Below are positions 257-31,575 of a stretch of 32,000 nucleotides of DNA, piece by piece. The stretch covers positions 870,001-902,000 of the forward strand of contig NZ_CP107255.1 in assembly GCF_029232205.1 (NCBI RefSeq), in the 5' to 3' direction. A program made the position numbers and the translations under genes. The notes below the pieces were generated by a model. That model did not search any database. It saw nothing but the letters and a program-made list of their open reading frames with translations, and had not been told where the DNA came from. This DNA comes from Candidatus Saccharimonadota bacterium. GTDB taxonomy: Archaea > Nanohalarchaeota > Nanosalinia > Nanosalinales > Nanosalinaceae. The stretch's first letter is position 1, and each line of letters starts with the position of its first letter.

Positions 257-360
257 AGTCCCCTGGTGTAGTGGCCAAATACCTTCAACACTATGTTAAG
301 GTAGGCAATTCATAGCGGCCTTTGGAGCCGCTGACCCAGGTTCGAATCCTGGGGGGACTA
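257..360 (+). tRNA. tRNA-Gln(UUG) with a ~31-nt intron between the D-arm and the anticodon stem (about 283-314)
   Basis: Acceptor AGTCCCC/GGGGACT with A1-U72 (typical of archaeal tRNA-Gln) and discriminator A. D-arm GTGT-AGTGGCCAA-ATAC. Anticodon arm GCGGC-CTTTGGA-GCCGC, anticodon TTG at 322-324. T-arm CCAGG-TTCGAAT-CCTGG. About 31 extra nt lie between position 26 and the anticodon stem. No encoded CCA. Confidence 0.7.
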
Positions 361-2781: not shown

Positions 2782-3069
2782 ATGGCAAAAGAAGTACGTG
2801 CATCACACATCCTCGTCGACAACGAGGAACACGCCAAACAGATCAAACTTGAACTGGAAAGAAACGAAGACAAAGACTTCGCAGAAATGGCCAGAGAAAA
2901 AAGCGAAGGCCCATCCAGAGACAACGGCGGAGACCTCGGATTCTTCAGCAGAGGAGACATGGTCAAACCATTCGAAAGAAAGGCCTTCGACATGGAAGTA
3001 GGAGAAGTATCGGATCCTGTCCAGACAGAATTCGGATGGCACCTAATCAAGAAAACCGAGGAAAGATAA
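2782..3069 (+). CDS. parvulin-type peptidyl-prolyl cis-trans isomerase (PpiC/PinA-like)
   Basis: MAKEVRASHILV...GGDLGFFSRGDMVKPFERKAF...VSDPVQTEFGWHLIK is a classic single-domain parvulin. The ATG at 2782 is preferred over the TTG at 2761 used by the ORF track. Confidence 0.8.
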   Translation: MAKEVRASHILVDNEEHAKQIKLELERNEDKDFAEMAREKSEGPSRDNGGDLGFFSRGDMVKPFERKAFDMEVGEVSDPVQTEFGWHLIKKTEER

Positions 3070-3087
3070 GGTTTTCTAGATAACGCA

Positions 3088-3104
3088 GAAGATCTCCGAT
3101 CTTC
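3088..3104 (+). terminator. hairpin GAAGATC-TCC-GATCTTC after the parvulin gene
   Basis: Perfect 7-bp stem, 19 nt after the stop codon. Confidence 0.3.
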
Positions 3105-3293
3105 GAATAATTAAGAAGACAGAAGAGCGATAGTTCTTGAATTGTTGTAGAGAAGAAATGTTTTTTCTCACAGTATTGACTTCTTTTCTTTTTCTCTTGA
3201 TTAAATTTTGAGGCAACTACATACACTCCATAACCCAGTTCCCGTCACACTTCCAAAAGACTTAAATTTGTCACTATCTAATAGTAACATATT

Positions 3294-4568
3294 ATGGGAC
3301 TACTTGATAGATTCACTGGCGGATCTAACGAAACCGAAAATCAAGAAGAGCAGCAAGAACAAACCCTGCAGCAGGAAGAAACAATCGAAGAAGCATCACC
3401 TGATGAAAAACAGACTCAAGAACTTATCGAGTTTGGGCCTGAAAACAACCACACCTTACCCGAGGATAAGCAGACCGACGTAGACGAGACACTTCAGAAA
3501 GTGGAGGACCCTGTAGAATTTCTGAGCAACAAGGACTCAGAAGGACTACAGACAGCCTACGACAACTCTTTCATCGCAGAGGCCCTAAGGACACAGGTCA
3601 CTGATGAGAAGAGGAGAACACGTGGCGCTTTCCAGACAGCTGCAACAACAGAGCTATGGGCAAAGAACCCTGAAGCCAACGAACTAGTTGCAAACGTTGC
3701 AGCAGAAGCTGGAATGAGTGCAGACGACGTCTATGATGAGATGGCAGATGAAACCAAAGAGGAAGTTATCACCAGTCTCGTCGGAAGAGAACTTTATGGG
3801 CCAGCAGACTCTTTTGCGACAGAATCAGAAAGTCTTGACACTCTTGCAGAAGCAATTGAGCAAGAAATAGGAAGAGAGATCAAAGAAGAGCATGAAGACC
3901 TGTCATATATAGACACCGGCAACCTTGACGAAGAGCAATACAACAAGGTAGTAGCAGTAATGACTTCTCTGAGCGAAGAGGGAAAATCTGCTATTGATGA
4001 CGAGCATCTTGGCCTGGACAACTTTAACTGGGGCAATAACCTCGACAACGAAAGCAAAGCCAGATTGAACGAGACAATAGGCAGTAGCTGGAACGATTCC
4101 GCAAAAAGAGCAGTCGAAGACAGATGGGAGAATGAAGAGTACAGTCAGGCAGCACTGCTTGCAGAGACATTCGAAGTCGATCAGGTAGAAGTAGATGACG
4201 GAAGAAGTTACAGCGACAGAACGAAAGAAATCAATGATGTAGCGAAGGAAGCAGTAGAAAAGTACAGGAGATCTGGAGACTACGAACAGGCCGTAGAGCT
4301 CGCAGGCGAAATACCTGGAGGAGTACAGAGAACAGAGCTCCTAGAAGATCTTGCAGTACACATTGACGACGAGGAAGAAGCATTCCAGGTAGCAACCGCA
4401 GGCTACACAGAAGATGATGTAATGAATCAGGCCTTAGAGTACGTCGATCAACAAGTACAGGAAGGAAACACCGAGGCCTACGAACAGCTTAACTCAGCAA
4501 CCGACTACGACATCGCCGAAGAATTAAGTGCTGAAGCACAGACAGACATACAGCTTGCAGGCCTGTAA
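3294..4568 (+). CDS. highly acidic hypothetical protein
   Basis: 424-aa ORF, E/D/Q/T-rich and low complexity, with no recognisable catalytic motif. TTAAATTT lies about 45 nt upstream. Confidence 0.6.
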   Translation: MGLLDRFTGGSNETENQEEQQEQTLQQEETIEEASPDEKQTQELIEFGPENNHTLPEDKQTDVDETLQKVEDPVEFLSNKDSEGLQTAYDNSFIAEALRTQVTDEKRRTRGAFQTAATTELWAKNPEANELVANVAAEAGMSADDVYDEMADETKEEVITSLVGRELYGPADSFATESESLDTLAEAIEQEIGREIKEEHEDLSYIDTGNLDEEQYNKVVAVMTSLSEEGKSAIDDEHLGLDNFNWGNNLDNESKARLNETIGSSWNDSAKRAVEDRWENEEYSQAALLAETFEVDQVEVDDGRSYSDRTKEINDVAKEAVEKYRRSGDYEQAVELAGEIPGGVQRTELLEDLAVHIDDEEEAFQVATAGYTEDDVMNQALEYVDQQVQEGNTEAYEQLNSATDYDIAEELSAEAQTDIQLAGL

Positions 4569-7738: not shown

Positions 7739-7799
7739 GCTATTAAACAGTTACAGCCATAACCTCTAACCACAGAGAAAAAATGAAGCAACGATCCGA

Positions 7800-7850
7800 A
7801 AGGCATTATCAAAATGCCTTAAGCTTGATCGAACTTAGCTTGTAAGTTCG
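7800..7850 (+). other. two perfect 8-bp hairpins (AAGGCATT-ATCAA-AATGCCTT at 7800-7820; CGAACTTA-GCTTG-TAAGTTCG at 7830-7850)
   Basis: Read directly from the sequence. They form part of a chain of five stem-loops preceding tRNA-Leu. Confidence 0.5.
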
Positions 7851-7883
7851 CCGGGGTAGCCAAGTTAATTCTTGCCAACCCCG
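7850..7883 (+). repeat. exact 16-nt copy of the tRNA-Leu(UAA) 5' end (7850-7865 = 7933-7948), folded back on CTTGCCAACCCCG
   Basis: GCCGGGGTAGCCAAGT occurs twice, 83 nt apart. The upstream copy pairs with 7871-7883 in 11 of 13 positions, with A.A and C.C mismatches. Confidence 0.75.
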
Positions 7884-7932
7884 AAGCCATGCACAGCATG
7901 GCCTATTGCGTATCAATCGAGCGCAACCAATT

Positions 7933-8015
<83 letters not shown>

Positions 8016-31171: not shown

Positions 31172-31312
31172 AGAAAAATTCTCCCCCTTCAATTCTCCCC
31201 ATAATCTGTAACCGATTATTGGGACTACTTCATTAAGAGTCTTCGGACCTCCAACCGATCAGTTAAAAAATTAGGCCTACAGAAATTCTACTACAGACAA
31301 TCTTTACTCCAA

Positions 31313-31340
31313 TGCGAGGGTCGAAGATCTCTAAGATCTT
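31313..31340 (+). repeat. third partial copy of the tRNA-Leu(GAG) 5' end (GCGAGGGT) followed by the hairpin GAAGATCT-CTA-AGATCTTC
   Basis: TGCGAGGGT occurs at 31312, 31364 and 31419 (spacing 52 and 55 nt). The 8-bp perfect stem is at 31322-31340. Confidence 0.5.
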
Positions 31341-31364
31341 CTCGACACAAGCAAATCTATGATT

Positions 31365-31395
31365 TGCGAGGGTAGCCAAGTTGATTGCCAACCCT
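31365..31395 (+). repeat. exact 16-nt copy of the tRNA-Leu(GAG) 5' end (31365-31380 = 31420-31435), folded back on ATTGCCAACCCTC
   Basis: GCGAGGGTAGCCAAGT occurs twice, 55 nt apart. The hairpin has the same architecture and the same A.A and C.C mismatches as the element at 7850-7883. Confidence 0.75.
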
Positions 31396-31419
31396 CCAAA
31401 AACAAACTGGCAAAACAGA

Positions 31420-31502
31420 TGCGAGGGTAGCCAAGTGGTCAAAGGCGCAGCGTTGAGGGCGCTGTCCTGTAGAGGTTCCGGGGTTCGAATCCTCGCTCTC
31501 GC
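31420..31502 (+). tRNA. tRNA-Leu(GAG), class II
   Basis: Acceptor GCGAGGG/CTCTCGC (one G.U pair), D-arm GCC-AAGTGGTCAAA-GGC, anticodon arm CAGCG-TTGAGGG-CGCTG, variable arm TCCTGTAGAGGTTC, T-arm CGGGG-TTCGAAT-CCTCG. Confidence 0.88.
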
Positions 31503-31575
31503 AAGTCCATATTCCTACGAATCACGCGATTCTCTGTTTATAGGGAAGTCAGCTCCATAACCGAGAGCAAGACAA

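Follow-up and report, generated by a model that had tools for sequence, protein, structure and literature searches.

A recurrent fold-back copy of the tRNA 5' end upstream of tRNA-Leu genes in Nanohaloarchaeota

Why should a complete, intron-free tRNA gene be preceded by a second copy of its own 5' end and by a sequence complementary to that copy? The question is raised by the tRNA-Leu(GAG) gene of a nanohaloarchaeon, which is located in a 32,000-nt stretch of genomic DNA (contig NZ_CP107255.1, positions 870,001 to 902,000; hereafter the window), and again by the tRNA-Leu(UAA) gene of the same stretch. Comparison with loci of nanohaloarchaeal relatives (designated by L-numbers) demonstrates that the element is real, recurrent and structurally maintained. 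We read it as the product of an insertion and duplication, akin to the repeat-flanked tRNA introns of this phylum, whose complement would serve to lock the spare 5' strand; the probability of this reading is put at roughly 0.45.

Homologues of its gene for RNA polymerase subunit D assign the window, part of a 1.05-Mb contig, to Nanohaloarchaeota. Genes for tRNA-Leu(UAA), tRNA-Glu and tRNA-Leu(GAG) were called in the window by both ARAGORN and the Rfam tRNA model. The tRNA-Leu ends given by Rfam (7933-8015 for UAA; 31421-31503, 50.1 bits, for GAG; both plus strand, as are the parts of the two leaders described below) match the acceptor stems, and ARAGORN calls one base more at either end (31420-31504 for GAG). 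Upstream of tRNA-Leu(GAG), repeat analysis identified an exact copy of tRNA positions 1-16: GCGAGGGTAGCCAAGT is found at 31366-31381 and at 31421-31436, with a start-to-start distance of 55 nt, and the repeat is really 17 nt long when the T at position -1 is counted. The copy forms the left arm of a hairpin, of which the complement TTGCCAACCCTC (31385-31396) is the right arm. This hairpin consists of the pairs G3-C, A4-T, G5-C, G6-C, G7-C, T8-A, G10-C, C12-G, A13-T and A14-T, with A9.A and C11.C left unpaired. Matches to the 16-mer with at most two mismatches number four, compared to 0.02 expected from shuffled sequences. Copy, complement and the 55-nt offset are real as described in the original prediction, in which their coordinates were one base low.

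The repeats at the GAG locus are nested, with three copies of the tRNA 5' end in total. The outermost partial copy, GCGAGGGT, measures 8 nt (31314-31321), or 10 nt if positions -2 and -1 are included (ATGCGAGGGT, tRNA positions -2 to 8, 31312-31321, direct-repeat family D1). It is followed by the hairpin GTCGAAGATC-TCTAA-GATCTTCTCGAC (31320-31346, inverted repeat I4), the perfect core of which spans 31323-31341; this short third copy and its perfect hairpin had also been predicted and exist, one base higher than given. A small hairpin, CAAATC-TAT-GATTTG (31352-31366), precedes the 16-nt copy, and an A-rich spacer (31397-31420), in which inspection and motif comparison revealed no promoter-like motif, separates the complement from the tRNA. 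Parts of this leader recur elsewhere: AAATCTAYGATT of the small hairpin is common to the tRNA-Leu(UAA) leader of L017, its variant AAATCTCTGATT occurs in the tRNA-Leu(GAG) leader of L053, and CCAAAAAC, 3' of the complement, is also present in L012. The hairpin series as a whole (31321-31364) is homologous to the UAA leader of L017 (3392-3474) and to the GAG leader of L053 (minus strand), a similarity which implies that leaders would have moved between different tRNA-Leu genes.

The tRNA-Leu(UAA) gene exhibits the same arrangement. GCCGGGGTAGCCAAGT is found at 7850-7865 and 7933-7948, placing the copy 83 nt upstream of the tRNA, and repeat and folding analyses define a hairpin (7850-7883) composed of the copy, a loop (7866-7870) and the complement CTTGCCAACCCCG (7871-7883). 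Two further leader hairpins (7886-7902 and 7906-7926) follow. In the window, the complements pair with positions 3-14 or 3-15 around a loop of 5-6 nt, and the distance between the repeats is 39 nt at the GAG gene (38 nt with the 17-nt repeat), 67 nt at the UAA gene and 33-66 nt in relatives. The two window elements differ at positions 3 and 4, where copy and complement change in step (C3:G to G3:C and G4:C to A4:T), and share the A9.A and C11.C mismatches, just as had been proposed. Compensation at the level of structure extends to the other hairpins of the same leaders, as a comparison of the window with L055 reveals a G-C to A-U double change in the second UAA-leader hairpin and a G-C to G-U change in the third.

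For the comparison, 39 nanohaloarchaeal rpoD loci were fetched and further loci were reached via neighboring proteins. A metagenome scan with the hairpin pattern contributed one genuine new locus (L040) and one chance match (L041). An orthologous hairpin is located directly 5' of tRNA-Leu(UAA) in L004, L005, L012, L017 and L055 and, in diverged form, in L028 and L031, and the same hairpin precedes tRNA-Leu(CAA) in L036 and L040. It is present in about nine lineages besides the window. A covariance model built from nine elements found nothing further within 280 kb except L031, and then detected the unseen L055-L057 lineage with an E-value of ~8e-11. The original prediction had allowed for the outcome that no further instances would be found; instead, the same hairpin recurs in relatives. 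Among the Rfam 15 covariance models only the tRNA itself matches, so that no curated family covers the hairpin elements, and the literature that was searched treats disrupted tRNA genes without describing these modules.

Of the cells in the hairpin alignment, 92.9% are paired. Two pairs alone have changed in both partners, C3:G to G3:C and G4:C to A4:U, and it is the window GAG element that contributes the two of them. The double changes that had been advanced as an argument for selection are therefore genuine, but covariation within the hairpin rests on one lineage and its statistical weight is small. The pattern of mismatches is constant: in ten of ten Leu elements position 9 is purine.purine and position 11 is pyrimidine.pyrimidine, even where C.C has become T.T or C.T and A.A has become A.G. 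Even where the spacers of different lineages defy alignment, loop and complement of the UAA elements remain nearly the same, and distant UAA elements have the loop TTAAAYC in common. The loop is not the same in the close pair formed by the window and L055. Between these two, the last 29 nt of the spacer are ~97% identical, compared to ~70% further upstream (estimated by eye). Judged from these sequences, pairing appears to be conserved for as long as the element exists.

Such constancy could be taken to mean that the leader is functional, acting as a protein-bound hairpin, as a three-segment switch on tRNA-Leu maturation or yield, or as the source of a released small RNA. The retained mismatches, the conservation of loop and complement but not of spacers across distant lineages, the nearly identical terminal spacer segment and the double and G-U changes of the neighboring leader hairpins would all be in agreement with this idea. 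So would the pairing options of the complement, as the spare copy and the real 5' end of the tRNA are equally good partners for TTGCCAACCCTC (inverted repeats I1 and I3), resulting in mutually exclusive pairings I1/I3 at the GAG gene and I1/I2 at the UAA gene. In this respect the leader resembles bacterial attenuators and T-box-type leaders, in which segment 2 (here, the complement) has a choice of two partners, segment 1 (here, the copy) and segment 3 (here, the real 5' end). What sets it apart from those systems is that segments 1 and 3 have the same sequence, that neither a terminator nor a ligand nor a regulator is known and that the element is dispensable; no candidate for a signal that would select between the pairings was found, and the dispensability in sister lineages argues against an attenuator-type switch. 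The same dispensability counts against a functional leader in general, and most tRNA-Leu genes have no such element: the hairpin occurs in 9 of ~33 rpoD-locus lineages and, in its 16-mer form, in one of nine GAG lineages. Furthermore, arms and loop have decayed in L028, L031, L027 and L008, the loop differs between the window and L055, no ligand, partner or Rfam family is known, and a like design at unrelated tRNAs and at 3' ends speaks against a Leu-specific regulator. A positive leader function is therefore regarded as improbable, though of the rival explanations it deserves the most attention.

The distribution of the element points to repeated gain and loss. Lineages with the hairpin are dispersed over the RpoD tree, and the sister of each is hairpin-free. 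Within the clade of the window, the UAA element is found in the window and in L055, while L001, L002 and L058 carry a plain tRNA gene, and the UAA loci of these three are exactly the product of a deletion between the repeats. For the GAG gene, nine lineages could be compared: three of them (window, L042 and L053) contain the module with the outermost copy and only the window contains the 16-mer hairpin. L042, the closest relative of the window, has the appearance of a window locus from which the sequence between the repeats was precisely deleted. Homologues of the outermost-copy module are present at the GAG genes of L042 and L053 and at the UAA genes of L004, L012 and L017. The selection on a structure that the original prediction argued for is qualified by this dispensability, the element being cleanly absent in sisters and present as a 16-mer hairpin in one of nine GAG lineages.

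Nor does each copy track its own tRNA, as had been claimed. Outer copies drift, with T16C in L055 and G7T and C11T in L028, where the complement has changed as well; the outer copy of L031 has lost its acceptor part, and that of L053 retains A4 (GCGAGGGT) although the tRNA has G4 (GCGGGGG). Copies of the 3' end, described below, have diverged in L008, L012, L014 and at the tRNA-Met gene of L040. By contrast, the inner copy was intact in every case examined, and because only the outer copies decay the inner copy is identified as the working end. In some cases leader bases (-1 to -4) or trailer bases (+2 to +10) are part of the repeat, an observation that favors a duplication at the DNA level. 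The pairing of the predicted structure is kept, yet the structure also looks like a product of duplication, so that the proposed choice between a selected structure and a duplication scar is not an either/or.

Several side observations concern the state of the repeats. Upstream of the SG9 tRNA-Leu gene, L008 (5150-5250) contains a decayed mosaic of CACCGGGG, TTGCCAACCCG, the T-arm complement-like GAGAGATTTG, a hairpin and CCCCGG, and two nested 3' repeats lie downstream of the same gene. Runs of exactly 100 N are located between hairpin and tRNA in L004 (3731-3830) and just after tRNA-Leu in L035 (2543-2642); by NCBI convention these are presumably scaffold gaps, and repeated tRNA ends may break assemblies.

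Patchy occurrence, nested repeats (in L008, CCGGCAAACTCACATA occurs twice, 156 nt apart) and direct repeats of tRNA ends (16-17 nt at the 5' end, 21-26 nt at the 3' end in relatives), some with flanking bases, are also what attachment sites of integrative plasmids or viruses would leave behind if the interior of the element was later deleted and its ends remained between the repeats. Archaeal elements typically attach at tRNA termini, and there is a documented case of a 5' tRNA fragment that precedes an intact gene (PMC3293823). The modules described here are like the repeats of SSV- and pNOB8-type elements and like the Caldiarchaeum tRNA-Thr 5' fragment (PMC3293823) in that a partial tRNA terminus stands beside a regenerated gene, flanking bases may be taken into the repeat and presence varies among close relatives. 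They differ in that merely 33-67 nt separate the repeats, without an element but with a self-folding complement, in that the architecture is conserved across lineages and tRNAs, and in that the center of the palindrome lies outside the repeat. This center corresponds to the loop and is not part of the 16-nt segment of identity, whereas a recombinase core would consist of inverted sites flanking an overlap of 6-8 bp within the repeat. The sequences between the repeats are non-coding hairpins with neither an open reading frame nor an integrase remnant, complements of the target are not expected, and independent internal deletions should not arrive at the same tiny architecture in many lineages. 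The hairpin pattern had no match in a viral contig collection, the archaeal coverage of which is limited (plasmid collections were not searched). Overall, we consider such an origin quite unlikely.

Where transcription would start was assessed by promoter-like motifs. At the GAG gene, the conserved motif TTAAAAAATTAGG (31263-31275) is situated upstream of all three copies of the 5' end. AGTTAAAAAAATAGG is present in every tRNA-Leu(GAG) ortholog, 41-47 nt before the tRNA where the module is absent, and at a distance of 51 nt (window), 51 nt (L042) or ~42 nt (L053) from the outermost copy where it is present. Between the 16-nt copy and the tRNA no promoter-like motif was identified. The promoter-like TATTAAAC of the tRNA-Leu(UAA) locus (7741-7748) is conserved in L001, L002, L055 and L058; in L055 the distance from its TTAAAC core to the copy is 33 nt, and in L002, L058 and L001 the core is found 49-68 nt before the tRNA. 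Similarly, L012 and its module-free sister L015 have a common promoter region, and the tRNA start of L015 aligns with the outermost copy of L012. Because the conserved motif precedes the outermost copy, the element probably lies in the transcribed 5' leader. The modules would then occupy the former start site of the tRNA and are predicted to be transcribed as leader.

These motifs also lend themselves to a different explanation, namely that the palindrome acts at the DNA level around a TATA-like loop (GTTAAAYC in UAA elements), either as a second promoter or as the operator of a dimeric regulator. Module-free tRNA-Leu(UAA) promoters read YTTTAAM at 27-68 nt upstream, and the loop sequences TTAAAT or TTAAAC are located 36-68 nt upstream of the tRNA in the window, L005, L012, L017 and L031; L027 has the promoter-like TTTAAC immediately before CTTGTCAACC. 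In addition, a comparison of the two strands of 24 modules by folding energy did not favor the RNA strand, the minus strand folding slightly better overall. A promoter in the loop is plausible for some of the UAA elements; nevertheless, the loops of the GAG element (GTTGA), L055 (CATAT), L040 and L036 are not TATA-like, the tRNA-Gln modules described below lack such a motif, and co-variation of the half-sites with the acceptor sequence of each tRNA would not be expected of a protein operator. A DNA site is accordingly given very little credence.

The fold-back design is not limited to the 5' end of tRNA-Leu. Mirror-image 3' modules were identified downstream of tRNA-Leu in L004 (4007-4102), L005 (4627-4730), L007 (3288-3386), L008 (5319-5435), L012 (3362-3476), L014 (3286-3388), L038 (4211-4316) and L040 (~3160-3260, minus strand), and downstream of tRNA-Met(CAU) in L040 (~4175-4252, minus strand). 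They comprise, in this order, a spacer, a complement of the T-loop and of the 3' strand of the T-stem, a 7-bp hairpin and a copy of the tRNA 3' end, which measures 21-26 nt in the best cases and in some includes 2-10 trailer bases. Stem changes in the hairpin are compensated on both arms. In the tRNA-Met module the copy covers the T-arm only, and its hairpin (AGAAACTC-ACA-GAGTTTC) is also that of the tRNA-Leu module on the contig. At tRNA-Gln genes, 5' modules exist in L007 (255-320), L012 (390-445) and L014 (499-555): a copy of the first 13-15 bases, with the promoter-like TTTCTTAAG upstream of it, is followed by a small hairpin and an imperfect complement ending 4-7 nt before the tRNA. The original prediction considered a restriction to class II (Leu and Ser) tRNAs; since tRNA-Gln and tRNA-Met carry modules of like design, this design is not specific to class II. 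The accompanying statement that tRNA-Gln and tRNA-Glu lack such an element is correct for the window at repeats of at least 11 nt, but the tRNA-Gln genes of relatives have analogous modules. Separately, the tRNA-Gln(UUG) gene of the window (257-360) contains an insertion of ~30 nt in the region of the D-arm, with a hairpin ACCTT...AAGGT and a flanking imperfect D-loop repeat, and was missed by both ARAGORN and the Rfam tRNA model.

A further link between these structures is the palindrome family GAARNTC-loop-GANYTTC, to which the hairpin at 31320-31346 of the window belongs. The family occurs in the 3' modules, in the outermost-copy modules and at intergenic sites and also closes, at their 3' ends, canonical introns of tRNA-Leu, tRNA-Gln and tRNA-Arg. 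The small hairpin is near-identical across different tRNAs within one genome (tRNA-Leu and tRNA-Met of L040) and differs between genomes at the same tRNA. Introns in the D-loop are likewise flanked by direct repeats of 7-8 nt (GGCCAAAG, GGTCAAA) in tRNA-Leu of L007 (3133-3190) and L025 (3607-3695) and in tRNA-Gln of L019 and L033, and within them lie sequences complementary to the exon segment that is repeated. In L025 the intron contains GATTGCCAAGCCC, which is close to the loop-plus-complement of the window GAG element. Apart from tRNA genes, a conserved non-coding unit in the window (3058-3135, palindrome 3088-3104) is built on the same palindrome family (GAAGATCTCCGATCTTC), with the flanks TTTCT..GG and ..AAGAAGAC...GAGCGATAG and sometimes in two tandem units of 63-70 nt; it is also found in L005 (811), L025 (737), L027 (825), L028 (774 and 837) and L039 (859).

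Non-canonical archaeal tRNA introns (PMC4390854; PMC11782384; PMC5829648) offer a further close parallel. Like the modules, they are short insertions with segments complementary to the adjacent exon; the terminal hairpin family is shared, D-loop introns of the same phylum have repeats of 7-8 nt, and disrupted tRNA genes are a known trait of the host lineage. Unlike in such introns, the duplication here reaches the end of the gene, the downstream gene is complete, splicing is not needed and no consistent bulge-helix-bulge is formed. A tRNA intron in the strict sense was rejected, as a complete tRNA follows each element (31421-31503; 7933-8015) and leaves the mature sequence uninterrupted. A bulge-helix-bulge intron was rejected as well: a scan yielded many chance matches, and the sole recurrent one, GGTA/TGCC, fits the L005 type and not the GAG element. 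A split or permuted tRNA gene was also discarded, given that the complement matches the fragment itself and the intact gene is situated 39-67 nt downstream.

An active intron could still be imagined if the outer copy was used as an alternative 5' exon and the sequence from the loop to inner position 16 was excised by a splicing endonuclease of broad specificity. Joining outer position k to inner position k would yield the same mature tRNA, the phylum is rich in non-canonical introns, some of them repeat-flanked, and the hairpins of L005, L017 and L004 can be redrawn as a helix, a 3-nt bulge, a 4-bp helix (GGTA/TGCC), a 3-nt bulge and a helix. Direct repeats, however, place identical 4-nt helices beside the splice sites, and identical strands are unable to form a helix. 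No bulge-helix-bulge register can be drawn for the GAG element and only a weak one for the UAA element of the window, the predicted cuts (between C11 and C12, and within the complement) would be unproductive, and outer copies decay while inner copies never do. Of all explanations weighed, we believe this one the least.

The original prediction further called the copy a decoy; a decoy for RNase P or for the splicing endonuclease is not supported. In Haloferax, tRNA-like "t-elements" serve as processing signals for RNase P and tRNase Z. The modules are comparable to t-elements as tRNA-derived or tRNA-like structures beside processing sites in transcripts of halophilic archaea; they are unlike them in that the hairpin is neither a cloverleaf nor an acceptor/T minihelix and contains two internal mismatches. 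A tRNA-like or minihelix substrate, the latter taken as an unbroken acceptor-plus-T helix of ~12 bp with a T-loop and discriminator, was also tried and rejected, since the tRNA model did not match the hairpin at E <=1, A.A and C.C interrupt the helix, and the window elements leave positions 1-2 unpaired.

The history that we favor begins with insertion and duplication, once or several times, within the 5' portion of a tRNA-Leu gene. The original, promoter-proximal 5' end (positions 1-16; in the case of the outermost copy, 1-8) would stay in place, to be followed by the inserted sequence and, downstream, by a regenerated complete tRNA. Direct repeats also border the non-canonical D-loop introns of Nanohaloarchaeota, which hints at a shared type of event, and a duplicated stretch reaching the end of the gene would place the insertion outside the gene instead of producing an intron. 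Non-canonical archaeal tRNA introns are movable (PMC4390854), direct repeats have been reported at intron borders (PMC11782384) and endonucleases with an L3 loop accompany many disrupted tRNA genes in DPANN archaea (PMC5829648). Transcription would start upstream of the outermost copy, as the conserved promoter motifs suggest, making copies and hairpins part of the 5' leader. RNase P, the proteins of which are found in Nanohaloarchaeota (PMC4919917), is assumed to cut at the intact inner copy, after which the leader would be discarded. A free extra acceptor 5' strand could meanwhile pair with the single acceptor 3' strand of the tRNA, and the adjacent complement, across a loop of 5-7 nt, would act as a lock by folding onto the copy once both have been transcribed. 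Purifying selection on this pairing would explain the compensatory changes, and the module as a whole would remain dispensable because recombination between the repeats can excise it cleanly. The element would then be neither a regulator nor a decoy for an enzyme.

Folding calculations agree with this scheme in part. The GAG hairpin alone is unexceptional, with a z-score of -0.9 that refers to a segment shifted by one base and missing the last pair; the correct 31-nt segment folds with -10.4 kcal/mol. The UAA hairpin (-15.6 kcal/mol, z = -4.3) and both whole leaders (z = -3.4 for GAG) are far more stable than shuffled sequences. Three precursors were subjected to partition-function folding, with the probability of the correct acceptor stem as readout, in an equilibrium model that is crude and ignores co-transcriptional folding. 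This probability was 1.00 for the tRNA alone and 0.22-0.62 with the wild-type leader. It dropped to 0.01-0.03 when the complement was scrambled and was 0.65-0.76 when both arms were scrambled; scrambling the copy only gave inconsistent values (0.28-0.70), and a GAG precursor including the outermost copy yielded 0.00. The model thus predicts that a spare 5' strand left free captures the 3' strand of the acceptor and that the complement prevents this capture.

A number of points weigh against an insertion and duplication product held by a lock. Even the wild-type leader lowers the acceptor-stem probability in the equilibrium model, down to 0.00 with the outermost copy, and the complement that is freed by scrambling the copy is not consistently harmful in silico. 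Comparing the strands by folding energy offers no indication of selection on the RNA strand, and the promoters were assigned by motif conservation. No mechanism accounts for a target that is copied in direct as well as inverted orientation, and no true intron with this loop and complement was found at position 16/17, the similar GATTGCCAAGCCC in L025 being the only approximation. Locking by itself leaves unexplained why UAA, CAA and GAG elements have identical mismatches at positions 9 and 11 and why the UAA loop TTAAAYC is conserved. Finally, the homology of GAG and UAA leaders requires a transfer between genes and the re-adaptation of three segments, which is equally unexplained.

Insertion, duplication and locking, taken together, bear on how non-canonical archaeal tRNA introns arise and move. 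A single phylum exhibits repeat-flanked introns, leader and trailer modules with the same hairpin and clean empty sites, often in sisters that differ by the insertion alone, and these side-by-side states make insertion, duplication and precise loss testable. A broader proposal is that small target-duplicating insertions, each bringing or creating a complement, colonize nanohaloarchaeal tRNA genes, and that non-canonical introns (with a short repeat within the gene) and leader or trailer fold-backs (with a repeat extending to the gene end) result from one process. We advance this idea tentatively and rather doubt it; if true, the presence/absence pairs would be snapshots of the gain and loss of archaeal tRNA introns. 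In practical terms, intron-bearing tRNAs of these genomes escape standard finders, and the repeats coincide with runs of N in two metagenome-assembled genomes (L004 and L035). The element would also be a case of an RNA "lock," in which a duplicate of the acceptor strand able to hijack tRNA folding is held by its own complement. Such a lock would account for compensatory evolution without a positive function, and it is a possibility that locked copies have been recruited for the control of tRNA maturation.

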